A stretch of DNA of 54,977 nucleotides from an uncultured Bacilli bacterium (GCA_944372455.1 CALVZF010000003.1:1-54977), one strand, 5' to 3'. Shown: positions 1 to 16,701, counted from the stretch's first letter. Notes: generated from the letters alone by a model not told the origin. Numbers and translations: made by a program.

Positions 1-76
1 CCTTACATCTCTATTATATTATATTTCCTTCTATATGAAAAGACTATTAACTTTTTTTTCTTTGTCAACAGTCTGA

Positions 77-103
77 AAAATCTCTTATAAATTAAGAGAT
101 TTT
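77..103 (-). terminator. Rho-independent terminator downstream of the cotD 3' half
   Basis: Inverted repeat AAAATCTCTTA (77-87) / TAAGAGATTTT (93-103) just past the TAA at 110-112. Confidence 0.7.
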
Positions 104-109
104 ATAAAA

Positions 110-241
110 TTATCTAAAACAGCAACAAGAACCTTCGTTTAATTGACATACTTCATTTTCTTCACAGCAAGTATAGCATGGTGAATATGTATGTTTATAA
201 ACATGATGGTTTATAACTTTAGTATTGATAGGACAGATATG
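110..241 (-). CDS. cotD: 3' half of interrupted CotD-family spore coat gene (no start codon of its own)
   Basis: Manual translation HICPINTKVINHHVYKHTYSPCYTCCEENEVCQLNEGSCCCFR*. His/Cys-rich and continues the ...HEVP of ORF 4093-4392 in frame. Not in the ORF track. Confidence 0.85.
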   Translation of the reverse strand, partial: HICPINTKVINHHVYKHTYSPCYTCCEENEVCQLNEGSCCCFR

Positions 242-262
242 TCCTTGCCCCTTTTTGATAGA
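240..262. other. Attachment site at the left end of the element (core plus inverted-repeat arm)
   Basis: Core TGT at 240-242. Arm TTTTTGATAGA (252-262) matches the reverse complement of 4079-4089 at 10 of 11 positions. Confidence 0.8.
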
Positions 263-595
263 CTATATTTCTACTATACCATTTATTATGTCTATAACCT
301 CTTCTAATTCTTCTTTTTTTATTTTTTCAACAAATGATAATTTACGAGCATTAAAGTCAATACTTCTAATATGTTCACACAACACAGAACCTTTTACTTT
401 TTTAGTATTTAATAGTTCATAATGAGTAGGAAATTTTTTTGTATTTGTTGTAATTGGACAAATAATTGCCATACTAGTATATTTATTAAATTTATCTTTA
501 CTAATAACTACAGCAGGTCTAAGTCCAGTTTGTTCATGACCTTTAGTAGGGGCAAAATCCATATAACAAATGTCACCTTGTTTTGGTATATACAT
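263..595 (-). CDS. mazF: PemK/MazF-family endoribonuclease toxin
   Basis: Motifs QGDI..MDF.P.KGHEQ.G.RPAVVIS, CPITT and LCEHIRSID. Start overlaps the antitoxin stop. Confidence 0.93.
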   Translation of the reverse strand: MYIPKQGDICYMDFAPTKGHEQTGLRPAVVISKDKFNKYTSMAIICPITTNTKKFPTHYELLNTKKVKGSVLCEHIRSIDFNARKLSFVEKIKKEELEEVIDIINGIVEI

Positions 596-855
596 CAGTC
601 AATAATTTCCTTTCCTAAATCTTCTCCCCAATCATATGATTCTACTATTCCTTTTTCATTACTTGGTAATTGTTCAAACAATTTAAATCTTTCTTCTAAA
701 GTTAAATGCTTCTTTTTAGCTTTTGTGATTATAATTGTATCTTCTTTTTGTATTAATTCAACTATATCATTTGTTTTTAATTTAAGAGATTTTAAAAAAC
801 TACTTGGAATTCTTATTCCGTCTGAATTCCCCCATTTTTGAAGTCTTGCTTCCAT
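595..855 (-). CDS. mazE: AbrB/MazE-family antitoxin
   Basis: LQKWGNSDGIRIP AbrB fold and C-terminal YDWGEDLGKE. Likely start MEARL at 855 after GGAG (ORF track starts at 873). Confidence 0.92.
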   Translation of the reverse strand: MEARLQKWGNSDGIRIPSSFLKSLKLKTNDIVELIQKEDTIIITKAKKKHLTLEERFKLFEQLPSNEKGIVESYDWGEDLGKEIID

Positions 856-877
856 ATTATCATCTCCATTCATTTAT

Positions 878-906
878 AGTATATACAATGTTTATACTTT
901 TGTCAA
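878..906 (-). promoter_or_regulatory. SigA-type promoter of mazEF with an overlapping palindromic operator
   Basis: TTGACA (906-901), 17 bp, TATACT (883-878). Imperfect palindrome AGTATATAC-AAT-GTTTATACT (878-898), typical of TA autorepression. Confidence 0.7.
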
Positions 907-938
907 TGTTTTTTTCATTAATTAGTATGAATAATATA

Positions 939-2504
939 TTACAAATTATTAAAAGTAACTTTAACATTTATAGTTTTATCTCCAAATATTTCAATTCTGT
1001 CTATTAGATTAATTATTAATTCTCTACTAGGTTCTTTCATGGTTAAAAATTTATTAATATATTCTATTATAATTTTATTTTTTACTTCTTCATTAATATT
1101 ATCATTAATAGTATTATTTAACTCATTATATCTTTTTTGTTTTATATTTAATTCGTTTTCTAATTTAACTTTTACTCTTTCAAATTGTTCTTCAGTTATC
1201 TTTTTATTTAATTTATCAATGTAAATAACATCTAAATTATCATTTACTTGTTTAATATCATTAGTTAGTGTTTCTAATTCCTTTTTATTATTAAATTTAT
1301 TATCTTCAGTTAAATTATTTAATACATTATTTTTAACTTTATCTTTATTAATATAACTTAAGCACATATTAGTTAATGAATTAATGATTACCTTTTCTAA
1401 TTCATCATAATTATTTGAATGAGTTGTACATAATCTTTGTTTCATATAAGTTCTATAATAGTTACAAATAGTATAACATCTATTATCTTTTTTTCTTCTT
1501 GCTTGGATTGAAATTCTATGTCCACAATCACCACAATATAAAAGTCCATCTAATAAATGATTTTCTTTTTTTTCATTTCTTCCTACATTTTTAGGTATTC
1601 TTTTTTGTACTTCATAAAAAGTTTCTTTATCAATAATAGGTTCATGAGTATTTTCTACAATTATATAGTCTTTAGGATTATTTCTAATAACCTTTTTAAC
1701 TTTATAATTAACTTTACTTCTTCTATTTTGTACCATATCACCCATATACATTTGATTAGTTAAAATATCTCTTATTGTTTTAGAATGCCACTCTCCATAT
1801 TTTAAGTTATAATTGTTTTTCCATTCAAAACTATAATATTGTGCAGGTGTTTTTATTCCTTCATTAGTTAATTGTTTTGCTATTTTAAAAAATGATAAAC
1901 CACTTAAACACATATCAAATATTCTTTTAACTACAAATGCTTGTTCCTCATTTATCGCTAAATGATTTTTATCATTCGCATCTTGATCATATCCAAATGG
2001 AGTTCTACCTCCCACAAACTTGCCTTCTTTTTGTTTTGCTCTTAAACTAGATTTAATTTTTTTAGATATATCTTTCGCATACATATCATTCATAATTGCT
2101 TTGAATGGAGCAATATCATTATTAGAATTATCTAGAAAAGTGTCTATATTATCAGTAACTGCTATATATCTTACATTATGTTCTGGAAAATACTTTTCTA
2201 TTAAATTACCAGTACCAATATAATCTCTTCCAAGTCTAGACATATCTTTAGTAATAACCATATTAACTCTACCTAATTCAATATCATTTAATAATCTATT
2301 AAAATCAGGTCTATCAAAATTAGTTCCACTATAACCATCATCAATATAAATATCATAAACTTTTAAATTATTTTCTTTAACATATTGAAGTAATAAACTC
2401 TTTTGATTTGTAATACTTTCACTTTCTAATGCTTTGTCATCATCTTCCCTAGATAACCTTATATAAAGTCCAACATTATATATCTTATTTAAACTCCCTA
2501 ACAA
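939..2504 (-). CDS. Large serine recombinase (SpoIVCA/TndX-like integrase-excisase)
   Basis: Catalytic YIRLS, DDGYSGTNFDRP and KDMSRLGR motifs, recombinase domain, zinc ribbon CGDCG...C...C and a coiled coil. TTG start with a GGAGG RBS. Confidence 0.95.
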   Translation of the reverse strand: MLGSLNKIYNVGLYIRLSREDDDKALESESITNQKSLLLQYVKENNLKVYDIYIDDGYSGTNFDRPDFNRLLNDIELGRVNMVITKDMSRLGRDYIGTGNLIEKYFPEHNVRYIAVTDNIDTFLDNSNNDIAPFKAIMNDMYAKDISKKIKSSLRAKQKEGKFVGGRTPFGYDQDANDKNHLAINEEQAFVVKRIFDMCLSGLSFFKIAKQLTNEGIKTPAQYYSFEWKNNYNLKYGEWHSKTIRDILTNQMYMGDMVQNRRSKVNYKVKKVIRNNPKDYIIVENTHEPIIDKETFYEVQKRIPKNVGRNEKKENHLLDGLLYCGDCGHRISIQARRKKDNRCYTICNYYRTYMKQRLCTTHSNNYDELEKVIINSLTNMCLSYINKDKVKNNVLNNLTEDNKFNNKKELETLTNDIKQVNDNLDVIYIDKLNKKITEEQFERVKVKLENELNIKQKRYNELNNTINDNINEEVKNKIIIEYINKFLTMKEPSRELIINLIDRIEIFGDKTINVKVTFNNL

Positions 2505-2557
2505 TTCTTACCTCCTTCTAGAGAAAATCGCGTACATGATGAAGGTATCTCGCATTT

Positions 2558-2674
2558 TTAATTTTTACAAATCGTTTGAATATATTTTTTAATTTCTTTA
2601 TTTAAAATTTTTATAAGAATATCATTTATATCATTATTTTCATCATAAATATAATTAATCTTGTACTTATCCAT
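2558..2674 (-). CDS. Small ORF upstream of the recombinase, candidate recombination directionality factor
   Basis: MDKYKINYIYDENNDINDILIKILNKEIKKYIQTICKN* (38 aa) with a GAGGTG RBS. The frame stays open after the TAA until 2498, overlapping the recombinase start. Confidence 0.55.
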   Translation of the reverse strand: MDKYKINYIYDENNDINDILIKILNKEIKKYIQTICKN

Positions 2675-2958
2675 AACTCTCGCACCTCACTTAAATTTAT
2701 GGATAAATAACTAATTTTAGTAATACTAAATTGTATAATATTTAAATTATATATATTTTTAGTTTAATTATCCTAAATATCATTATTTTTTATTAATTTT
2801 ACTAAAGCAGGATAAGATGATGACACCCCATATAAAAAAGCTTATACAATAAGGACTCATTATAGTGTCATTCTTATTTTGCGCTTATAAAATTTATCCT
2901 ACTTCGTAAGTTGATACAATGAATAAATTCCTATTTTATAAGATATTAAAGCATATAA

Positions 2959-3002
2959 AAATATCCTACATTTAATAAATTGATTATTTTTGTAGGATAT
3001 TT
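2959..3002. terminator. Hairpin or terminator downstream of fic
   Basis: AAATATCCTACA (2959-2970) / TGTAGGATATTT (2991-3002). Confidence 0.5.
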
Positions 3003-3012
3003 CTATTTTTTT

Positions 3013-3765
3013 TTAATTATTTGCTTCTATTTCAAAATCTAATAATTCTTCGCACATTTTTTCATATAAATCTTGTTCATGTCTGATAGTATCAATTAAG
3101 AACATTTTGTCATTTTCATATTCTTTTAAACCTCTCATATAATAAGGTTTATCATCATCTAATACTATAAATGGCATAATGTTATTTCTTAAACACTCTT
3201 TAAACATTATTATTCTACCTATACGACCATTTCCATCACCAAAGGGATGTATGTGCTCAAATCTAAAATGAAAATCAACGATATCTTCTAAAGTAATATT
3301 GATTTTAGAATTATATTCATTTAATAATTCTTCAATTTTCCCCTCTACATCTTCAGGTGCAGTAGTATTAATAACATTAACCACACCTATTATATTAGGA
3401 ACAACTTTAAATCCTCCAACATTATATCTAGGATTTTCTTCATCATTAGTATTTCTTTTTAATATCTTATTCATTTCAATTATCATATCTTTTGTTAATA
3501 ATTCATCAACATTATCTAACATATAATCAAACAATTTAAAATGATTTTTAGATTACGTTAAATCATCTAATTTTATTAAATCATCACTTTTAGGAATAAA
3601 TGAAGATGTATCAAATATTGCTTCAGTTTGTTCACTAGTTAATCTACTACCTTCTATTTTATTTGAATTATATGCAAAATTAACTTGAGAATAATGATAT
3701 ATATTCCCTTTAAATTTTGATTCTTTTTGTTTAATTAATTCATTCTTGATTTTATTTATATCCAT
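3013..3765 (-). pseudogene. Fic/Doc-family protein broken by one in-frame TAA
   Basis: ORFs 3553-3777 and 3013-3534 are in the same frame. Read-through gives YNSNKIEGSRLT...DDLT*SKNHFKLFDYML...HPFGDGNGRIGR (intact Fic motif). Stop at 3553-3555. Confidence 0.88.
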
Positions 3766-3809
3766 AATCCAACTCACTTTCGTTTTATATTATTTGATAA
3801 AGAAATTAC

Positions 3810-3977
3810 TCATTTTAATAATTTGTCACTTGCATATTTTATTTCTTTGTCTATAACATTCCAACCTTTTCTTTTACCATTTTTATAATAACAAATTTCC
3901 TTTGAAATAACATGATCATCAATGTTATCATTATCCACTATTTCAAAAGTTTCCTTATTTATATATTTATGATTCAC
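3810..3977 (-). other. Short open frame (55 aa, GTG start) or gene remnant inside the element
   Basis: Open frame VNHKYINKETFEIVDNDNIDDHVISKEICYY...KLLK*. Weak RBS and no recognisable family. Confidence 0.25.
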
Positions 3978-4078
3978 AATTTTCTTCTTTAAATACTATA
4001 TTAATATTATATCATACAAAAAGACATTTCTTATCAAAATGCCTTTAAATTTGTACTTGTTTTCTCTTAAAATTTTGT

Positions 4079-4102
4079 TCTATCATAAATTATCACACTT
4101 GT
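4079..4102. other. Attachment site at the right end of the element
   Basis: Arm TCTATCATAAA (4079-4089) and core TGT (4100-4102). Confidence 0.8.
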
Positions 4103-4392
4103 GGTACTTCATGACAGAATGTTCTATGAACACATTTTTCAATAGGTTGTTCATAAACTGGTTGCATTTTACATCCACAACCCATATTCATATGTGAACC
4201 CATATTCATCATTGGTTCATAAGAAGAATTACATCCACAACTTCCACCTTTCATTGTTGGCATCATTTGAATATTTTTTTCTGATTTGTTAACATATTTT
4301 TGATCAATATCAATATTTGCAAAAATATCATTTCTTGGCATGCTTGGTGTCATTGGTCCAGCATCTATACATCTGTTTTTGTTTAAAAACAT
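4093..4392 (-). CDS. cotD: 5' half of interrupted CotD-family spore coat gene
   Basis: Met/Cys-rich and ends PVYEQPIEKCVHRTFCHEVP. The final QV* is supplied by the element. The P-V..P...C.H.T....VPHI.P..T...NH pattern of Bacillus CotD is completed by 110-241. Confidence 0.85.
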   Translation of the reverse strand: MFLNKNRCIDAGPMTPSMPRNDIFANIDIDQKYVNKSEKNIQMMPTMKGGSCGCNSSYEPMMNMGSHMNMGCGCKMQPVYEQPIEKCVHRTFCHEVPQV

Positions 4393-4414
4393 CTCTTATC
4401 CCCCTTTTCTAGTT

Positions 4415-4443
4415 TATATTATGAACAAAAGGGATAAAGTGTA
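4415..4443 (-). promoter_or_regulatory. Putative mother-cell (SigK/SigE-type) promoter of cotD
   Basis: TACA (4443-4440), 16 bp, CATAATATA (4423-4415). Fits the SigK pattern mACm-16-CATAnnnTA. Confidence 0.55.
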
Positions 4444-4460
4444 TATGTTTTAACCTATAA

Positions 4461-5357
4461 TCATTTTGTTTTAATATCATTATAAAATTGACCACTTTCT
4501 GTAAACATATTTACATCTGTTGGTACTTTTCTTATTAAATTAATTATTTCTTTTGGAACCTCTTCAAAATTAGAACTAAAATCGCCAACGGCATAAGTTG
4601 AATTCTCGTGAATTTTTTTGATACCTTTAAGTTTATTAATCATTTTAACATTGCATATTTTAGGAATAAAATATCTTATAAAACAATCTTCTTCTGAAAC
4701 CGAAATTTCTATTAACAAAGCATGTCCCTTATCTCTAACCATTAATAAAATATTGTTAGATAAAGACAAAATCTCAGTATTACCACAATCCATGTTATTA
4801 GGAAAACTTTCATAAATTTTTCTAACTAAAACATTATCTTTACCACGTAATACAATCGGATAATTTTCATCATTATATTTTTGTTGCAATATTGGGATAT
4901 CACTATAATAATTTTCATTATTAACTATTGAAGAATGTAATACATGAAGAATTTCATTTATAGAATTTGTCTCTTCAATTAAAAAAATAGGGTCTTTAAA
5001 CGAATATCCAGCTGAATTATTTCTTACATTGTTGATGAAATCAGTATCCATATCAGAAAAACAAGCTTTATAAAATATTTTAAGTTTGTCAAAATCATAA
5101 TTACACTTTAAAAGTTTATCTCTATAAATATTAAAAAGGTTATCAATAAATTTTGTGTAATTTAATTCAAAATTAGTAAGAATTTTTTTCAAATAAAATT
5201 CTATATCATTTAAACACTCATATAAGTTATCAGAATATTCAATTAAAGAATTTTTATTATACCTATATTGCTCTTTAGGAACTATATTATATAAAACAGT
5301 CTTAATTTTTAAATCATATTTAAAAAATTCTTCTACTTTTTTTAGATTAACGTCCAA
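4461..5357 (-). CDS. Hypothetical protein
   Basis: 298-aa ORF with a TTG start and AGGTG RBS, directly downstream of ffh. Confidence 0.75.
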   Translation of the reverse strand: MDVNLKKVEEFFKYDLKIKTVLYNIVPKEQYRYNKNSLIEYSDNLYECLNDIEFYLKKILTNFELNYTKFIDNLFNIYRDKLLKCNYDFDKLKIFYKACFSDMDTDFINNVRNNSAGYSFKDPIFLIEETNSINEILHVLHSSIVNNENYYSDIPILQQKYNDENYPIVLRGKDNVLVRKIYESFPNNMDCGNTEILSLSNNILLMVRDKGHALLIEISVSEEDCFIRYFIPKICNVKMINKLKGIKKIHENSTYAVGDFSSNFEEVPKEIINLIRKVPTDVNMFTESGQFYNDIKTK

Positions 5358-5374
5358 AATATCACCTACAACTT

Positions 5375-6682
5375 TTAAAATGGTAACTTCATATTTCCAT
5401 TAGATAACTGTTTCATCATTTTTTTCATTTGTTCAAATTGAGTAATTAATTTATTTACATCCTCAACTTTTTGTCCACAACCTTTAGCTATTCTTTGTTT
5501 TCTACTTGCTTTAATTATTTCTGGATTTCTTCTTTCTTTTGGCGTCATAGATAATACAATAGCTTCTAAATGAGCAATTTGTTTGGGATCAATTGTAATA
5601 TTATTTAAACCCATTTTTTTAGCTCCTGGAAGCATTTTAATAATATTTTCAAGAGGTCCTAATTTTCTAATTTGTTTCATATTGTTTAAAAAGTCCTCTA
5701 GATCAAATTTACCAGATTGTAATCTTTTCGCACTTTTTTTAGCTTCTTCTTCATCAATAACTTCCTCTGCTTTTTCTACAATTGATAGAATATCTCCCAT
5801 TCCTAGAATTCTATTTGCCATTCTTTCTGGATCAAATTCTTGTAATCCATCTAATTTTTCTGATACCCCTATCATTTTTATTGGAACATTAGTTAAATGT
5901 CTTATAGAAAGTGCGGCTCCTCCTCTAGTATCACCATCTAATTTGGTAAGTATAGCTCCTGTTAAAGGAAGAGTACTATTAAATCCTTCAATGATATTTA
6001 TAACATCTTGCCCTACCATACCATCAACTACTAATAAAATTTCATCAGGGTTTATTTCAGTTTTAATATTAACTAATTCATTCATTAAGTTTTCATCAAT
6101 ATGTAGTCTACCAGCAGTATCTATTAATATGTAATCATATTTTTGTTCTTTCGCATATTCTATTGCATTTTTAGCTATATCAACAGGATTAGTATTCCCT
6201 TCTTCATAAACATCAATACTTAGTTCTTTACCAATTTGCTTTAATTGATCAATTGCTGCAGGTCTATATACATCACAAGCAACAAAAAGAGGATTCTTCT
6301 TATATTTTTTTCTAACTAGACTACCAAGTTTTCCAATAGTAGTAGTTTTACCACTACCCTGTAGTCCAACTAACATTACAATTGTAGGATTTTTACTAGT
6401 AATTAAATCTGCTTTTTCTCCACCTAAAAGTTCTACAAGTTCATCCTTAACAATTTTGACAAACATTTCTCCAGGTTTTAAACTTTTTTTTACTTCTTCT
6501 CCTAAAGCTTTCTCTTTAACATCATTTATAAACTCTTTAACTACTTTATAATTAACATCTGCTTCTAAAAGAGCAAGCCTAATTTCTCTTGTCATATCAC
6601 TTATATTATCTTCTGTAATACGACCATACCCTTTTATTTTATCTAAAGCATTTTGTAATCTATCCCCTAAACTTTCAAACAT
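5375..6682 (-). CDS. ffh: Signal recognition particle protein Ffh
   Basis: ALLEADV, GLQGSGKTT, DTAGR, TKLDGDTRGGAALS and a Met-rich M domain. Confidence 0.98.
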   Translation of the reverse strand: MFESLGDRLQNALDKIKGYGRITEDNISDMTREIRLALLEADVNYKVVKEFINDVKEKALGEEVKKSLKPGEMFVKIVKDELVELLGGEKADLITSKNPTIVMLVGLQGSGKTTTIGKLGSLVRKKYKKNPLFVACDVYRPAAIDQLKQIGKELSIDVYEEGNTNPVDIAKNAIEYAKEQKYDYILIDTAGRLHIDENLMNELVNIKTEINPDEILLVVDGMVGQDVINIIEGFNSTLPLTGAILTKLDGDTRGGAALSIRHLTNVPIKMIGVSEKLDGLQEFDPERMANRILGMGDILSIVEKAEEVIDEEEAKKSAKRLQSGKFDLEDFLNNMKQIRKLGPLENIIKMLPGAKKMGLNNITIDPKQIAHLEAIVLSMTPKERRNPEIIKASRKQRIAKGCGQKVEDVNKLITQFEQMKKMMKQLSNGNMKLPF

Positions 6683-6684
6683 AA

Positions 6685-6831
6685 TTAGTCACCATCTTCT
6701 TGAGTCTCACTATCTGTTTTTCTTTCTTTATCTTCTATTTTCTGATTTAAATTTTCCATATCTAATTTTATTAATTCATCTAGATTTAATTTACCATAAT
6801 TTTCTAAATACTTATTTTTTTCTCTATACAT
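6685..6831 (-). CDS. Unannotated 48-aa small protein between ylxM and ffh
   Basis: MYREKNKYLENYGKLNLDELIKLDMENLNQKIEDKERKTDSETQEDGD*. Start overlaps the ylxM stop (TAATG) and its stop lies 2 nt before the ffh start. Confidence 0.6.
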   Translation of the reverse strand: MYREKNKYLENYGKLNLDELIKLDMENLNQKIEDKERKTDSETQEDGD

Positions 6832-7124
6832 TATAACAACTCCATAATTTGATTTTTTAAATTTTCATCATTTATATTTTTTAAAAGATTTTCAATTAAC
6901 TGATATTTTTTATTTAGATTTAACTTATCCTCATAATAATTAAGCTTTTCAGAAATATCTTTTAATTGTTTATGGACTGCATTTCTACTAACATTGTCAT
7001 TCTCACTTATTTCTTTTAAGGACAAATTATTAAAATAATAATCTTCAAAATATATCTTTTGTTTTTCTGTCAATAAATTTCCATAATAATCATATAAAAT
7101 AATCAATTTAGTATTTTTATCCAT
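6831..7124 (-). CDS. ylxM: YlxM (UPF0122) SRP-associated protein
   Basis: LYDYYGNLLTEKQ...LSLKEISE...VSRNAV, positioned between ftsY and ffh. Confidence 0.92.
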   Translation of the reverse strand: MDKNTKLIILYDYYGNLLTEKQKIYFEDYYFNNLSLKEISENDNVSRNAVHKQLKDISEKLNYYEDKLNLNKKYQLIENLLKNINDENLKNQIMELL

Positions 7125-7660
7125 TAATTATTCCCTTCCATAATTTTAATATACGATTTTTTATTTTCTTTTTCTAATTTTTCTAAACTTTTTATTGAAC
7201 GTAAAAAACAAGGTGTAAATTGTGGATATTTAGAACCTGTTTTAGTGAAAACATGCGAATTACTTATATTATTTTTATTTTTAATATAAAGTCCTATAAT
7301 TGGTTTTCTTTTATTTTCATTTTTTATAATTCTTAAAAAATTAGAATCTGCTATATTTGAATAATCATCATAAAAAGTAAACCAATTATGAGTTTTATCA
7401 TATAATGGATATTTTTCATATTCATAGTCGTTGAAATCTTTGAAAGCGTTGTACTCATCAACTAAAGAATTAAATAACTCGTTAAAAATTTCATAAATAT
7501 TTCTATCATCTGAAGTTATCTTAAATGAAAAGCCCATTAATCTTTCTGTAGCTTTTTTTCCATTTATCCATAAATAAATATTATTATCATTATTTAAAAC
7601 ATTTAAACATTTTTCTCTATCATTAATAACTAATGACTTGTCTATCTTATATATTTCCAT
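7124..7660 (-). CDS. Hypothetical protein inserted between ftsY and ylxM
   Basis: Long ORF with likely start MEIYK at 7660 after AAGGGG (track start 7720 overlaps ftsY). Confidence 0.7.
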   Translation of the reverse strand: MEIYKIDKSLVINDREKCLNVLNNDNNIYLWINGKKATERLMGFSFKITSDDRNIYEIFNELFNSLVDEYNAFKDFNDYEYEKYPLYDKTHNWFTFYDDYSNIADSNFLRIIKNENKRKPIIGLYIKNKNNISNSHVFTKTGSKYPQFTPCFLRSIKSLEKLEKENKKSYIKIMEGNN

Positions 7661-7673
7661 TTTAATTTCCCCC

Positions 7674-8672
7674 TTAAAATAGATCTTTAAATAATCCATA
7701 AATATATTTTTCAATATCAAATACTTTTAAATCCGTTTCTTTTTCCCCTAGTCCAATAAATTTTACTGGAATATTTACTTCATCCTTGATTGCTAAAACT
7801 ATACCACCTTTTGCAGTTCCGTCTAATTTAGTAAGTACTATTCCTGTTATATTGGTAATTTCTTTAAAACTTTTAGCCTGACTTATTCCATTTTGACCAG
7901 TAGTAGCATCTATTACTAAAAGAGTTTCGTGAGGAGCATTAGGAATTAGTTTTCCAATTACTTTGTTCATTTTTTCTAATTCTTTCATCAAATTAACTTT
8001 ATTTTGTAATCTACCAGCAGTATCTACTAATACAACATCATAATTGTTTTTTAAAGCTTCTTCTAATCCGTCATAGATTACACTTGAAGGATCTTTTTTT
8101 TCTTGGCCTACTACTTTACAACCTATTTTTTCTCCCCACTTTTCAATTTGTTCCACTGCTCCAGCTCTAAAAGTATCACCTGCAACCAATAAAACCTTTT
8201 TTCCCTCGTCTTTAAATTTTCTAGCAAGTTTTCCAATAGTAGTAGTTTTACCTACTCCATTAACACCTACAAATAATATAACAGTAGGACCATTATCTTG
8301 AAAGTTGATTTTATTTACTATTACTTCATTATTTACATAAATAATAAATAATTCATCTACAATAATTTCCTTTAAATCAAGAGTAGATTCTATATGTTCT
8401 TTTTTTACTCTTTTTTTAATTTCATCAATAAAGTTCATAACAGTATTAACACCAATATCTGCCATAATTAAAATTTCTTCTAACTCTTCAAAATATTCAT
8501 TACTTACTTTTTTATACTTATTGCTTAAAAGAGATAATTTAGAAGTAAAAACTTCTCTTGTTTTAACTAATGCTTCATCATATTTTTTTACCTCATCTAT
8601 CTCTTCTTTAGATATATCATCAATTTTATTTTTATTAAAAATATTTTTAAATTTATCAAATAGTCCCATCAT
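7674..8672 (-). CDS. ftsY: SRP receptor FtsY
   Basis: GVNGVGKTTTIGKLA, GDTFRAGA, DTAGRLQNK and TKLDGTAKGG. Confidence 0.98.
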   Translation of the reverse strand: MMGLFDKFKNIFNKNKIDDISKEEIDEVKKYDEALVKTREVFTSKLSLLSNKYKKVSNEYFEELEEILIMADIGVNTVMNFIDEIKKRVKKEHIESTLDLKEIIVDELFIIYVNNEVIVNKINFQDNGPTVILFVGVNGVGKTTTIGKLARKFKDEGKKVLLVAGDTFRAGAVEQIEKWGEKIGCKVVGQEKKDPSSVIYDGLEEALKNNYDVVLVDTAGRLQNKVNLMKELEKMNKVIGKLIPNAPHETLLVIDATTGQNGISQAKSFKEITNITGIVLTKLDGTAKGGIVLAIKDEVNIPVKFIGLGEKETDLKVFDIEKYIYGLFKDLF

Positions 8673-12624: not shown

Positions 12625-13902
12625 TCATTCAATAACTCCATAGATTAAATTAGGAATTTCTACTACATCATCTACAATTTTAAAACAATTCATTATTCTT
12701 TCATGAATATTCTCTACTTCTTTGTTATAGTAAACGGTTATTAATTTTTCTTGAACATTTACTGTATCACCAATTTTTTTATGTAATTTTATACCCACTG
12801 AATAATCAATATCATCATATATATTTGATCTTCCAGCACCTAATTCCATAACAACATAACCTAATTTTTCTGTATCAATCTTGCTAATGAATCCGGACTT
12901 AGTTGATTTAATTTCTAATTTTTTACTTTTTACAATTAATTTATTAATATTTCCATTTTGATAATTTACAAATTCTAAAAATTTATTATAAGCACTTTTA
13001 TCAATTAATTTTTGTTTAACCATTTCTAATGCGTCATTAACTGAAATATTTAGTCCTAAAGATACCATATAAGCAGCAATTATTAATGATAGATTAGTAA
13101 TATCAGTTGGACCTTTTCCTTCAAGGGTTTCCATAGCTTCTAATACTTCTAAAGAATTACCAATCATATTTCCTAATGGTTGGTTCATATTTGAAAGGAT
13201 ACAAACTACTTCTTTATTATGATTTTTTCCGATTTTTATCATTAATCTAGCAAGTTTTTTAGCATCTTCTAGATTTTTCATAAAAGCTCCATTACCTACT
13301 TTTAAATCTATGACTATTTTATCTACACCACTAGCTAACTTTTTACTCATAATTGAGGAAGCAATAAGTGGTATAGAATCAACTGTTCCGGTGGTATCTC
13401 TAAGAGCATATATTTTTTTATCTGCTGGAACTAAATTATTATTTCCATAGGCATTGCAAATTCCAATTTCATTAACTTGATCTATAATTTCCCTAATTGA
13501 TAATTTAGTTTTAAATCCAGGAATGGCTTCTAATTTATCAATAGTACCACCTGTAAAACCTAATCCTCTACCACTCATTTTGACTACTTTTACTCCACAA
13601 GAAGCTACTAAAGGAATAACTATTAAAGTGGTTTTATCGCCCACCCCACCAGTAGAATGTTTATCTACTTTAATACCTTCTATTTCTCTTAAATCAATAA
13701 TTTTTCCACTATTTAACATAGAAGTCGTAAGATTAATTGTCTCTTCTTCGGTCATTCCGTTTATACATATAGCCATTAATAAAGAACTCATTTGGTAATC
13801 TTTGATTGAGTTATTAAGATAACTATCAATAACAAATTGTATTTCTTCACTAGTTAAAATTTGAGAATTTCTTTTTTTATTAATTATATCTATTATATTC
13901 AC
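12625..13902 (-). CDS. pdp: Pyrimidine-nucleoside (thymidine) phosphorylase
   Basis: DKHSTGGVGDKT, KMSGRGLG.TGGTIDKLE and SSIMSKK. Confidence 0.95.
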   Translation of the reverse strand: MNIIDIINKKRNSQILTSEEIQFVIDSYLNNSIKDYQMSSLLMAICINGMTEEETINLTTSMLNSGKIIDLREIEGIKVDKHSTGGVGDKTTLIVIPLVASCGVKVVKMSGRGLGFTGGTIDKLEAIPGFKTKLSIREIIDQVNEIGICNAYGNNNLVPADKKIYALRDTTGTVDSIPLIASSIMSKKLASGVDKIVIDLKVGNGAFMKNLEDAKKLARLMIKIGKNHNKEVVCILSNMNQPLGNMIGNSLEVLEAMETLEGKGPTDITNLSLIIAAYMVSLGLNISVNDALEMVKQKLIDKSAYNKFLEFVNYQNGNINKLIVKSKKLEIKSTKSGFISKIDTEKLGYVVMELGAGRSNIYDDIDYSVGIKLHKKIGDTVNVQEKLITVYYNKEVENIHERIMNCFKIVDDVVEIPNLIYGVIE

Positions 13903-13973
13903 TTAAACCACCTACTATTATAATAGTATCATAATTTATTTTACAAAAAAAGTAGGAAATTATCTTTTCCTAC

Positions 13974-15365
13974 TTAAATATTATTAAACTTACTACTTTT
14001 GTTAACATAAATAATGCCAGCAGTTCCACCTATAAGTGATAGTGCGATTATTCCTAATCCAATTCCTACTCCCGTTTGTGGAGAGTTTTGATCATTATCA
14101 CTTGGTTTTCCATCTACTGCACTGTTATTTTGCCATACTGCATATAACGTTAAATTTGCATCTTTACTATAACTACTTCCTGGATCATAAGTACTATCTT
14201 TACTAGTTGCATTTTTATTTGTTGACCACCCTAGGAATGTATACCCATCCCTTGTTGGTTTTTGTGTACTTAATCTAATTGTTTCTCCTTCATTTTTTGT
14301 TTGCGATGCTGGAGCATTTTCCCCTCCATTTGCATCATATCTTATTGTGTAAGCATCGCATTCGTTATATTCAATTTGATAATCAGCAACCATGTATCCA
14401 ACAAATTTGCTACAAGTATCGCCATTACAATTATATGTTCCAGGCTTTGCATAATAAAGATATGTTCCTTCTTCTTCATTGTCATATGGATCGTCTGGAT
14501 CATCATTAGCATCTATTTCATCAGCAGAATATCCAAAAACAGCCTCACCATTATTACATGATCTACTCATATTGTAGTTATATTTAAATAAATTAATTCC
14601 TTTTTCTGTTAAATGTTTTTCAGAATCTACTTCATTATTTAACTTATTAAAATTAGTTTGATTTAAACTCCAACTTTTGTTTACATAAAAACCAATTTTA
14701 TTGTTACTAGTGTTTTGGTATGGTGAATAAATTTGACCGTTATTTTCACCAAGAGAAATACTAAAGTTTGTTTCACTATTAATTATGGCAGAATTTAACT
14801 CATTAAAAAAGTCATCAGAAAGAAGCCTATTCATTTCTCTTTTACAAGAATCACTACCATTTTCTGAATAATAGTACATTTGGTATAACACTTTAGTTAA
14901 ATCATCAAATGAATTATCATTTTCTGAACTACTGAAATTTCCATCATTAATACAATAATAGTCTGAATCAATTTGTACGCATCTTGAAACCGCAGAAAGA
15001 TTACCATCTAAATCAACAATACTTTTATTAAGATCCCTAGCTAGTAATTTAACAGCTGCCATATATCCTTGCACATAATCATCAGCACTAATTTGTTTAA
15101 ATTGTCCTGACTTAATTTCATATTTTGGAGATTCAAAAAGAACACGTCTTTGATTACTACTTAAACCATTTTTTGTACCCCATTCAGTTGCTGCAGAACC
15201 AGGAACACCACTTTCCTTATTTGTTACAGTCTCTACTTTATTGGTAGATTCAGTAAACAAATAATGATATTTAACTGTCTTACAACTAGCCGCATTTACA
15301 TTAATTGGAAGTATTAATGCTGCCATAGGAATTATAGCTAATATACTTTTTATTTTATGTTTCAT
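13974..15365 (-). CDS. Cell-wall-anchored surface protein with an InlB B-repeat (Flg_new-type) domain
   Basis: Signal peptide ending VNA, B-repeat YTIRYDANGG...PTRDGYTFLGWST...LTLYAVW, sorting signal SPQTG plus TM and basic tail. Confidence 0.85.
   Translation of the reverse strand: MKHKIKSILAIIPMAALILPINVNAASCKTVKYHYLFTESTNKVETVTNKESGVPGSAATEWGTKNGLSSNQRRVLFESPKYEIKSGQFKQISADDYVQGYMAAVKLLARDLNKSIVDLDGNLSAVSRCVQIDSDYYCINDGNFSSSENDNSFDDLTKVLYQMYYYSENGSDSCKREMNRLLSDDFFNELNSAIINSETNFSISLGENNGQIYSPYQNTSNNKIGFYVNKSWSLNQTNFNKLNNEVDSEKHLTEKGINLFKYNYNMSRSCNNGEAVFGYSADEIDANDDPDDPYDNEEEGTYLYYAKPGTYNCNGDTCSKFVGYMVADYQIEYNECDAYTIRYDANGGENAPASQTKNEGETIRLSTQKPTRDGYTFLGWSTNKNATSKDSTYDPGSSYSKDANLTLYAVWQNNSAVDGKPSDNDQNSPQTGVGIGLGIIALSLIGGTAGIIYVNKSSKFNNI
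13994..14353. repeat. About 360-bp direct repeat, copy 1
   Basis: Aligns to 15504-15863 at offset 1510 with 5 mismatches by eye. Confidence 0.9.
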
Positions 15366-15483
15366 ACTATCCCTCCACTATTATCTATATTAAGATTAGC
15401 ATTTTTCTCACATCATGTCAATAAATTCAATAAATTATTTATCAAAGTCGTCAAAATAAAAAATAGGAAGTTATTTTCCTATT

Positions 15484-16701
15484 TTAAATATTTCTAAATT
15501 TATTACTTTTGTTAACATAAATAATACCAGCAGTTCCACCTATAAGTGATAGTGCGATTATTCCTAATCCAATTCCTACTCCCGTTTGTGGAGAGTTTTG
15601 ATCATTATCACTTGGTTTTCCATCTACTGCACTGTTATTTTGCCATACTGCATATAACGTTAAATTTGCATCTTTACTATAACTACTTCCTGGATCATAA
15701 GTACTATCTTTACTAGTTGCATTTTTATTTGTTGACCACCCTAGGAAAGTATACCCATCTCTTGTTGGTTTTTGTGTACTTAATCTAATTGTTTCTCCTT
15801 CATTTTTTGTTTGTGATGCTGGAGCATTTTCTCCTCCATTTGCATCATATCTTATTGTGTAAGTTCCACAATTCTCATTCGTATATTTAACAACATAATC
15901 TATTGCGATAACCCCATAACAAGTATTTGCAGTTTTACCTGCATTAGCTCCACCGTCTACTACATATGTAACACAGCTATTTCCTACATCACTATCAAGT
16001 TCTGGAAAAATATCTTCTCCAGCAAGACTATTAATTTCTTCTTTATAATCATATAGATTAAAGGCAATTTCATTCAATTTATTATGATCACTCAAATTAT
16101 AAGTCTTACTTAATTGAATATTTAATTCATTAGTTGAAACATTAAAACTAGGATTATCGTCAATGTTTCCTACACGAGTTACTTCTGTCAAATAATCATT
16201 TGTTATAGCACTACGAAGCTTACTTTTAAGTTCAGAAATTTTACTACTATCCATATTATAATAATAACTATAATAAATTACTTGATAAAGTTCATCCCAT
16301 TGATTTGGCCTATCAACTATATGCTGACAATAATACTCATTGTCATCTCCTAAAACACAAAAATCTTTTGCTGAACTTGGTAAGTTACCACTATGTGATG
16401 ATGCATAGTTAGCTAAATGTTTTGACACTTCAAAAGTATAATCAATATAATTAGTTAATTCTGTACTATTTAAACTATCATTAATTCCTTCTGCAACAGA
16501 TGTCATATCTATAATACTGCTACTACCTGGATAATAAAATGTTGCAGTAGATGAATCATTAACTACTCCAAGTGCAGAAAATGGTTGGCTAAATAAATAA
16601 TGATAATTTTCTTCACATTCTGCCGCATTTGCTTCCCTTGGAATAATTAAAAACATTAAAGCAACAATTAAACTTGTGATTAATTTTATTTTTTTATTCA
16701 T
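15484..16701 (-). CDS. Paralogous cell-wall-anchored surface protein with an InlB B-repeat domain
   Basis: Signal peptide ending ANA. B-repeat and SPQTG anchor identical to those of 13974-15365. Confidence 0.85.
   Translation of the reverse strand: MNKKIKLITSLIVALMFLIIPREANAAECEENYHYLFSQPFSALGVVNDSSTATFYYPGSSSIIDMTSVAEGINDSLNSTELTNYIDYTFEVSKHLANYASSHSGNLPSSAKDFCVLGDDNEYYCQHIVDRPNQWDELYQVIYYSYYYNMDSSKISELKSKLRSAITNDYLTEVTRVGNIDDNPSFNVSTNELNIQLSKTYNLSDHNKLNEIAFNLYDYKEEINSLAGEDIFPELDSDVGNSCVTYVVDGGANAGKTANTCYGVIAIDYVVKYTNENCGTYTIRYDANGGENAPASQTKNEGETIRLSTQKPTRDGYTFLGWSTNKNATSKDSTYDPGSSYSKDANLTLYAVWQNNSAVDGKPSDNDQNSPQTGVGIGLGIIALSLIGGTAGIIYVNKSNKFRNI
15504..15863. repeat. About 360-bp direct repeat, copy 2
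   Basis: See copy 1. Confidence 0.9.

Follow-up and report, generated by a model that had tools for sequence, protein, structure and literature searches.

A miniature serine-recombinase element inside a CotD-like coat gene of uncultured gut Bacilli, a candidate for excision during sporulation

Is a spore-coat gene that lies in two pieces on the chromosome a broken gene, or one that the cell puts together again when spores are made? The question is raised by contig G000:C3 of an uncultured Bacilli bacterium (GCA_944372455.1, CALVZF010000003.1), whose entire length of 54,977 nucleotides is called the window here. Near its start, a small CotD-like gene is interrupted by a 3,860-bp element that carries a large serine recombinase gene. 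The initial annotation had proposed that precise excision of this element rebuilds the gene in the mother cell. The host assembly G000 comprises 1.15 Mb in 49 contigs, is estimated to be 94.65% complete and has about 24% G+C. It belongs to a family of uncultured gut Bacilli with genomes of about 1 Mb, in the order that we take to be RFN20. That a real integrative element is present, and that its precise removal would give back the gene, we regard as almost certain. To an excision linked to sporulation, in the mother cell, we give a probability of about 0.5.

On the minus strand, an open reading frame (ORF) of 99 amino acids (4392..4093) ends in ...TFCHEVPQV before its stop codon, and a frame at 241..113 reads HICPINTKVINHHVYKHTYSPCYTCCEENEVCQLNEGSCCCFR up to a stop codon (HICPINTK...CCCFR). 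The coat gene is interrupted after Pro97, with its N part at 4392..4100 and its C part at 241..113. The same 3-bp core, ACA on the coding strand and TGT on the plus strand, stands at both joints (240-242 and 4100-4102). Deletion between the cores in silico leaves one continuous frame of 97 + 43 = 140 codons, as the initial annotation had read it. Used as a query, the 99-aa product matched 13 intact homologues of 125-141 aa with 48-66% identity, and all 13 run unbroken across the joint as ...CHEVPH(V/I)CPINTK(I/V)INHH.... The N part of the window matches residues 1-96 of these proteins, and in the alignment of the homologues the two halves of the window abut between Pro and His. The intact gene was also found in the window's own genus: in G001 and G003 it lies whole beside ffh, the gene that it adjoins in the window. 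Without a start codon of its own in the window, the C exon can be of use only when rejoined. A promoter at one end of the joined gene and a terminator at the other had been proposed as well, and both have a counterpart in a sigmaK-type motif upstream and two hairpins after the stop codon. A strict terminator scan found none.

The two joints are also present outside the assembly. Public chicken-gut runs from two studies, one run being possibly the source sample, were compared as contigs (X1, X2, X3 and X5). The right attachment site (attR), at the C exon, is spanned with zero mismatches by contigs of X2 (48-888), X5 (87-565) and X3 (211-361), and the left site (attL) by a contig of X1 (4018-4700). 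The C part ends only 110 nt from the contig end. Window positions 76-242 align to the G001 locus at 86%, and the 3' flank is therefore genuine host DNA. In the public protein collection, the coat gene of this species occurs in the split form only; the exact 99-aa product is found on 7 contigs, and its next-best match is 66% identical.

The name cotD, given to the gene in the initial annotation, holds in part. Pfam and NCBIfam gave zero matches for both gene halves. Five close intact homologues scored 11.1-17.8 bits (E 0.005-0.62) against Spore-coat_CotD (PF11122), all in one common stretch and below the gathering threshold of 22 bits. The family can be reached through intermediates. A profile of the 13 intact homologues, run against 1.84 billion representatives with a cut-off of E <= 0.001, gave 103 proteins. 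Among 44 aligned sequences (43 longer matches and P0008), 14 match PF11122 at E <= 0.01, the best at 7.5e-8, and no other family recurs. Only weak or transitive similarity makes the gene CotD-like, and it bears no relation to the Clostridioides difficile protein named CotD, a catalase (10.1101/2022.02.25.481979; this and the other papers cited here were accessible in part).

Upstream of the CotD-like genes, CATAnnnTA occurs in 74 of 80 regions, against a mean of 7.9 and a maximum of 16 in shuffled sequences. The full AC-N16-18-CATAnnnTA occurs in 43 of 80 (shuffles: mean 0.9, maximum 3). The 80 regions are those of the window and of 79 of 80 loci, one having been dropped because the gene start lay too near the locus end. 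The motif was typed by what we take to be the sigmaK consensus. From this conserved motif and the weak CotD similarity, we infer mother-cell expression of the coat gene. Judging by gene content, the host is probably able to form spores: G000 holds SpoIVA (368 bits), Spo0A (142 bits), a sigmaK-like gene (290 bits) and a sigmaE-like gene (258 bits), and the sigma genes are uninterrupted. The coordinates of the features are collected in Table 1.

Table 1. The split coat gene, the element and their signals in the window
Feature	Position	Strand	Remarks
Two hairpins after coat-gene stop, likely terminator	40..103	-	-21.1 kcal/mol, z -5.0
Coat gene 3' part (C exon)	110..241	-	43 codons and stop; without own start codon; TAG closes the frame just upstream
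Core at attR	240..242		ACA on coding strand
Element body	243..4099	-	3,860 bp with one core copy counted
Element arm at attR (P arm)	243..264	-	begins with inverted-repeat half GTCTATCA on coding strand
MazF/PemK-type toxin	263..595	-	PemK_toxin 96 bits; overlaps mazE
MazE/AbrB-type antitoxin	595..873	-	40.6 bits
Sigma-70-like promoter of MazEF	906..878	-	11/12 positions
Large serine recombinase, 521 aa	939..2504	-	Pfam Resolvase 85.8, Recombinase 92.7, Zn_ribbon_recom 37.9 bits; PHROG integrase 378 bits
38-aa ORF, candidate recombination directionality factor	2558..2674	-	relatives 37-75 aa, usually overlapping recombinase start
7-1-7 palindrome	2716..2730		conserved upstream of small ORF (alignment of 14 upstream regions)
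Hairpin and U-run after Fic gene, likely terminator	2940..3006	-	-19.2 kcal/mol, z -6.6; between coat promoter and recombinase operon
Fic/DOC-family gene, broken	3013..3777	-	one in-frame stop 3553-3555; Fic motif region in downstream piece, Pfam Fic 54.4 bits
Orphan 55-aa ORF	3810..3977	-	no family match; not conserved in other elements
Element arm at attL (P' arm)	4078..4099	-	ends in inverted-repeat half TGATAGA; conserved in 7 occupied loci
Core at attL	4100..4102		ACA on coding strand; likely crossover dinucleotide CA
Coat gene 5' part (N exon)	4100..4392	-	97 codons to ...HEVP; integrated-state ORF runs to 4093, ends QV and stop in element arm
SigmaK-type promoter of coat gene	4415..4442	-	AC, 17 nt, then CATAATATA on coding strand

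The attachment sites have the build expected of a site-specific integration. On the coding strand, attL reads ...GAAGTACC-ACA-AGTGTGATAATTTATGATAGA and attR reads GTCTATCAAAAAGGGGCAAGG-ACA-TATCTGTCC..., and both element arms match the consensus of related elements. The consensus of the empty site (attB) in intact genes is CATGAAGTACCA CA TGTTTGTCC, taken from 81 of 91 loci scanned with the junction pattern; the other 10, which the pattern did not match, were left aside. A natural joined element site (attP) is present in G086, between the two recombinase modules of a composite element: GTCTATCAAAAAAGGGCAAGGA CA AGTGTGATAATTTATGACAGAC (G086:C3:13716-13746). It carries an 8-bp inverted repeat, GTCTATCA/TGACAGAC, with one mismatch, placed 22 nt to each side of the central CA, and the P' arms of other elements carry the perfect repeat half TGATAGAC. 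Among 401 family genomes, the attP pattern matches this internal site alone, and it was absent from metagenome contigs and viral contigs. More distant elements, whose recombinases are about 45% identical, have other arms (TTATCAC...GTGATAA) that are centred on the same CA of the His codon. The G086 locus itself (L047, G086:C3:6000-25000) holds two tandem cassettes inside its coat gene; their recombinases share 90% and 83% identity with that of the window.

All genes of the element lie on the strand of the coat gene, in the order 55-aa ORF, broken Fic gene, hairpin with U-run, 38-aa ORF, recombinase, MazE and MazF. The insert encodes a full-length large serine recombinase, as had been noted beforehand: all three Pfam domains exceed their cut-offs, the YIRLS motif is invariant in 16 orthologues, and the window copy keeps every position that is invariant among the other 15. 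The MazEF genes are adjacent, overlapping, both above threshold and intact. Whole Fic copies of 247-254 aa occur in three other elements (G086, G044 and G112). The Fic cargo decays and the recombinase module stays intact. The element had been described as very small and free of phage genes, and on both counts the description stands, no phage structural gene having been found in the element; cargo is present after all, in the form of MazEF and the broken Fic gene. Scans of the element ORFs against Pfam, NCBIfam and PHROGs found no relaxase or mobilisation family. In all, this is a miniature site-specific integrative element, and its conserved core is the operon of small ORF and large serine recombinase.

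Several other candidate features were considered. The 55-aa ORF near attL was dropped as a directionality factor because it is conserved in no other element. A CATAAATT box upstream of the small ORF was rejected as a -10 element for its short distance from the ribosome-binding site. The idea that transcription from the coat promoter runs on into the recombinase gene is weakened by the hairpin with U-run after the Fic gene. A sigma-70 scan of positions 1-4700 gave 51 sites against 46 expected and is uninformative because the DNA is AT-rich. The 7-1-7 palindrome, about 60 nt upstream of the small ORF, can be aligned in 13 other elements and is a possible operator; the leader in this upstream region is conserved too.

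The small ORF is the candidate partner. With its motif KYKINYIY..NDINDIFIKVL.KE.KKY, it is found just upstream of 18 of the recombinase genes examined, including that of a second element in G000, and it generally overlaps the recombinase start codon. In a structure prediction based on the author's own alignments and recombinase residues 170-521, the complex of small ORF and recombinase scored 0.73, and the best of 3 controls scored 0.00. As a gauge, 58 of 80 solved complexes attain the mark for this score, as do 2 of 110 mismatched pairs, counts that are only rough here because of the alignments. Contacts agreed to at least 97% between runs, and the pLDDT of the partner was at least 79. The predicted contacts involve recombinase residues 368-398, 475-500 and 510-521, that is, the junction of zinc ribbon and coiled coil and the C-terminal strand. 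According to PMC12286644 and PMC10747680, this is the region that directionality factors bind. The small ORF is hence predicted to bind the recombinase at the directionality-factor site. Its residues 3-35 make the predicted contacts and are kept in the 38-aa version of the window.

How widespread is such an interruption? A sample of 121 family genomes was searched, made up of G000, G001 of its own genus and one genome from each of 119 other genera. A recombinase relative (E <= 1e-40) is present in 71 of the 121, with up to 9 per genome, and a CotD-like match in 98. The remaining 23 genomes are without any CotD-like match, and the gene can therefore be lost. When the loci were fetched and inspected, 21 of the 98 proved to be occupied, the C exon beginning at the His codon behind non-coat sequence (G000, G044, G045, G047, G048, G054, G074, G082, G084, G085, G086, G088, G098, G100, G109, G112, G118, G121, G122, G130 and G136). 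In 75 of the 98, one alignment runs across the joint (8 of these were inspected directly), and in two (G053 and G070) a contig breaks at the joint or within a few bases of it. Two of the occupied genomes, G054 and G118, additionally hold an intact copy of the coat gene. The matches with internal stops in G021, G062, G049, G058, G093 and G107 are intact genes, the stops lying upstream of the start codons; G108 is intact as well; and an extra coat-gene fragment in G003 is an overlap of contig ends.

The same His codon is thus used in 21 of 121 genomes, by recombinases that are 44% to 100% identical to that of the window. The related cassettes measure 3.7-9 kb, the complete ones being about 3.7 (G284), 3.86, 4.4, 5.9, 7.5, 8.1, 8.3, 8.7 and 9.0 kb. 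In all 19 loci that show both genes, the recombinase is co-oriented with the coat gene. A C exon was found in 18 of these, and in all 18 the recombinase is upstream of it by 20-2,800 nt. The cargo differs among the elements (Fic, intact in three; MazEF; ABC ATPases; a radical-SAM protein; others). All 21 C exons are open over 41-46 codons, and all nine N exons found are open up to the joint. Over 30 codons, pN/pS is 0.34 in split C exons vs 0.20 in 81 intact copies. Since ffh flanks the coat gene in most loci, the sites are orthologous. Together with its relatives, the element of the window makes up an apparently undescribed family of 3.7-9 kb elements that target one dinucleotide across many genera.

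The histories of elements and hosts differ. Host Ffh proteins are 85-87% identical to that of G000 within the genus and 65-77% in other genera. In G086 and G082, Ffh identities of 76% and 75% go with recombinases 90% and 89% identical to that of G000, and in G085 an Ffh identity of 75% goes with 46%. These figures indicate that elements have moved between genera and that several lineages use one site. In a quick maximum-likelihood tree of 36 recombinases, the users of the coat gene need two label changes (the starred branches force two), with users of LysM genes and of ZIP-transporter or ATPase genes nested between them. From this placement, targeting of the coat gene is old in the recombinase family or arose more than once.

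Some observations on neighbouring material stand apart. In G053, two contigs, C65 (at its start; L069) and C84 (at its end; L070), meet exactly at the core with an overlap of ACA, the N exon on one and the C exon on the other. Such a break fits an assembly graph in which empty and occupied sites coexist; that bin has no recombinase contig. In G284, an extra C exon, identical in protein sequence, lies 15 kb away on the opposite strand behind element-like sequence (C8, L169, 16120-16299), and G118 has extra C-exon copies behind element-like sequence on C45 and C75 (L072 and L073). Some cassettes may carry a flanking exon, or the bins may mix strains. In the window, ffh and the coat gene are separated by a 298-aa ORF on the minus strand (4461-5357) that matches nothing in Pfam or PHROGs; none of the 32 loci compared has a counterpart, and in G001 the coat gene comes directly after ffh.

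The second element of G000 is on contig C2 (about 12790-16185; L017, about 4793-8185). Its recombinase, at the 3' end of the element, is 55% identical to that of the window and is preceded by the same kind of small ORF. It splits a gene with two PG_binding_1 domains and LysM repeats within the motif YTV.SGDT/LW, at the place of the slash. An intact orthologue of this gene has 386 aa (P0120), and a neighbouring gene is SleC-like (PG_binding_1 and a weak SpoIID match). Recombinases 81-89% identical adjoin LysM 3' parts in at least six other genera. Two more serine recombinase genes are present in G000 (C46:1253-2698 and C1:49559-50263), 30% and 28% identical. Unannotated records of 4-10 kb named 'Bacteriophage sp.' from faecal virus-like particles (MT838605.1, MT838398.1, MT837700.1 and others) encode recombinases 30-37% identical and could be free circles of similar small cassettes.

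In the reading that we prefer, at roughly even odds, the recombinase, with the small ORF as directionality factor, would join attL to attR in the terminal mother cell while spores are being made. The 140-codon coat gene would be rebuilt as its promoter fires. The forespore chromosome would retain the element, in the manner of skin, SPbeta, vfbin, vrin, gin and yin, and MazEF would penalise its loss from the germ line. Indeed, the precedent elements that were tested excise during sporulation, according to the accessible parts of the reports (PMC5595907; PMC10747680). A wider version of this reading is more tentative and, in our estimation, somewhat doubtful. It sees an old guild of miniature cassettes in reduced-genome gut Bacilli, with the coat-gene dinucleotide as ancestral home and offshoots in a LysM/peptidoglycan-binding gene that neighbours a SleC-like gene. 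Mother-cell excision would free circles at lysis and give the elements a cost-free launch for horizontal spread.

A number of findings count against sporulation-linked excision, and several of them suit an ordinary site-specific mobile element, integrative and mobilisable or in the style of Tn4451. For such an element, HEVPHVCP would merely be a reliable attB, excision would serve transfer, and the coat gene would be switched off at little cost. We consider this a credible possibility, held short of an even chance. Occupancy is patchy: the gene is intact in the window's own congeners G001 and G003, and of 13 congeners of other occupied genera that were searched, 11 carry the gene, 10 of them intact and one split (G284, interrupted by a different variant of the element). 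The recombinases of G086 and G082 are more conserved between genera than the host Ffh, a sign of horizontal movement. Moreover, recombinases 50-52% identical to that of the window, in a related clade, lie directly upstream of the 3' part of a P-type ATPase gene (one locus, L043), and others with the same identity directly upstream of the 3' parts of ZIP/ZupT-type transporter genes (three loci, L044-L046). Gene splitting, which here hits genes without an evident tie to sporulation, is therefore a habit of the family and no mark of sporulation genes. The addiction module and the variable cargo fit a mobile element too, as does TnpX of Tn4451 as the closest solved N-terminal domain (98.7 bits). 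CotD is dispensable in Bacillus subtilis, and the 23 genomes without a CotD-like match can evidently do without the gene. No sporulation-type promoter was seen at the recombinase operon: by eye, the 14-row alignment upstream of the small ORF showed no convincing sigmaE or sigmaK motif, and a terminator-like hairpin separates the operon from the coat promoter. The predicted complex may partly reflect likeness to the SprA-SprB complexes, which are already solved. What speaks for long specialisation on a late mother-cell gene, against a mere mobile element, is the use of the cotD site by recombinases down to 44% identity from at least two separate places in the tree. Decayed exons are lacking among the 21 C exons and nine N exons, the window's element has no relaxase or mobilisation gene that could be found, and the tested known elements in mother-cell genes do excise in sporulation. 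The insertions may be recent, however, and the intact exons are therefore weak evidence of selection on the split copies.

Alternatively, the insertion may be dead, with an element past excising and a coat gene that is a young pseudogene in this species. This is improbable in our judgement. The Fic gene is broken, and the small ORF of the window, shorter than most of its relatives (37-75 aa in 18 rows), ends early at 38 aa and is uncoupled from the recombinase start by a 54-nt gap. On the 7 contigs that hold it, the coat gene occurs in the split form only. Neither an empty-site nor a circle junction turned up, and a 3,860-bp skip is absent among the joints listed (15 of 37) for the contigs of X1, X2, X3 and X5; like the broken Fic gene and the short, uncoupled small ORF, this counts against the sporulation reading as well. 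Contigs drop rare variants, so the missing skip joint says nothing about excision, and no RNA run was among the public runs listed for this DNA. Against a dead element stand a full-length recombinase with all invariant positions shared with 15 orthologues, att arms that both match the consensus, an intact MazEF pair and two open exons; the truncated ORF keeps the residues predicted to make the contacts. An assembly artefact, a chimeric contig of a mobile element and two gene halves, could be suspected in an assembly of 49 contigs with the C exon so close to a contig end, but contigs from separate runs of two studies span both junctions without a mismatch, and the same architecture is found in 20 other genomes, so that it is very unlikely indeed.

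If excision is developmental, a structural coat gene would join the list of rebuilt sporulation genes, and a functional intervening element could be as small as about 4 kb, with a recombinase, a partner ORF and two arms. The phenomenon would then be common in an abundant uncultured gut lineage, in about a fifth of the sampled genera with the gene. Should the guild of cassettes exist, no intervening element tied to sporulation would be known that is smaller than its members of 3.7-3.9 kb, and these would supply compact pairs of integrase and factor whose defined sites span about 46 bp. Whatever the timing of excision, the family offers natural large serine recombinases of graded divergence (44-100%) with one attB, one known attP and a candidate directionality factor. 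The set is useful for the study of how targets are kept or switched and for genome-engineering toolkits. There is also a point for annotation, as the gene halves are called as separate small ORFs; the profile search returned many exon-only ORFs among public proteins.

Is cotD a known target of such elements? The initial annotation knew of no such case, and our literature search likewise gave no paper naming cotD: the gene was not linked to intervening elements there. Further elements are listed in the supplementary tables of PMC5595907 and PMC10747680, and more targets could be named there. As a target, cotD seems to be unreported. By kind, the closest precedent is gin, which interrupts gerE in Bacillus cereus ATCC 10987 and encodes GirC and GirX (PMC5595907, as far as accessible). 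Like the element of the window, gin is of non-phage type, encodes a large serine recombinase and sits in a small gene, which for gin is a late mother-cell gene, as the coat gene probably is; a small factor accompanies the recombinase of gin, as the candidate factor does here. In its att sites, too, an imperfect inverted repeat encloses a short common core (PMC5595907). In contrast, gin measures 28.6 kb and has three recombinase genes, vs 3.86 kb and one recombinase here, and its target is a regulator whereas that of the window is a structural coat gene. Excision of gin was shown in vivo and in vitro (PMC5595907), and the element of the window is known from sequence alone.

The skin elements in sigK, with SpoIVCA in B. 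subtilis and CD1231 with CD1234 in C. difficile, are alike in pairing a large serine recombinase with a split gene; in skin, the enzyme rejoins a mother-cell gene, as is proposed for the element of the window. The C. difficile skin requires a small directionality factor (PMC5025042; 10.1101/2022.02.25.481979, in the accessible parts). Unlike the element of the window, skin is prophage-like, and it measures 48 kb in B. subtilis as against 14.6 kb in C. difficile (10.1101/2022.02.25.481979); 14.6 kb is also the smallest skin element found in the literature compared. The target differs as well, sigK being split there and the sigmaK-like gene of G000 being uninterrupted. In yin, which splits yabG of Clostridium botulinum, the target is a sigmaK-dependent coat-maturation gene, and the factor was likewise proposed from a predicted complex at the recombinase's C-terminal region (PMC10747680, as accessible). 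However, yin resembles a prophage, excision was measured for it, and its recombinase adjoins the 5' part of the gene (PMC10747680). In 19 of 19 coat-gene elements, the recombinase instead sits at the 3' (attR) end.

SPbeta in spsM, with SprA and SprB, offers a parallel for the proteins. SprA (YokA) is among the closest solved full-length relatives of the recombinase, with 93.6 bits over residues 8-488. The SprB-type factor binds at the junction of zinc ribbon and coiled coil (PMC12286644, in the accessible part), which is similar to the predicted seat of the small ORF. SPbeta is nonetheless an active phage, and the recombinase of the window resembles SprA at the family level only. In size, SPbeta is well over 100 kb. 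Tn4451 and Tn4453, moved by TnpX, are closer in scale: they are small, are mobilised by a large serine recombinase via a circular form, and have in TnpX the best solved match to the N-terminal domain. They differ by a mobilisation gene, of which none was found in the window's element. TnpX uses GA-containing sites in several targets and is not known to need a directionality factor, whereas the coat-gene elements keep to a single conserved target with a central CA in all 21 occupied genomes. In its mechanism class, the element stands with skin, SPbeta, vfbin, vrin, gin and yin; what sets it apart is the apparently new target, the very small size and the unusually wide spread in an uncultured lineage.

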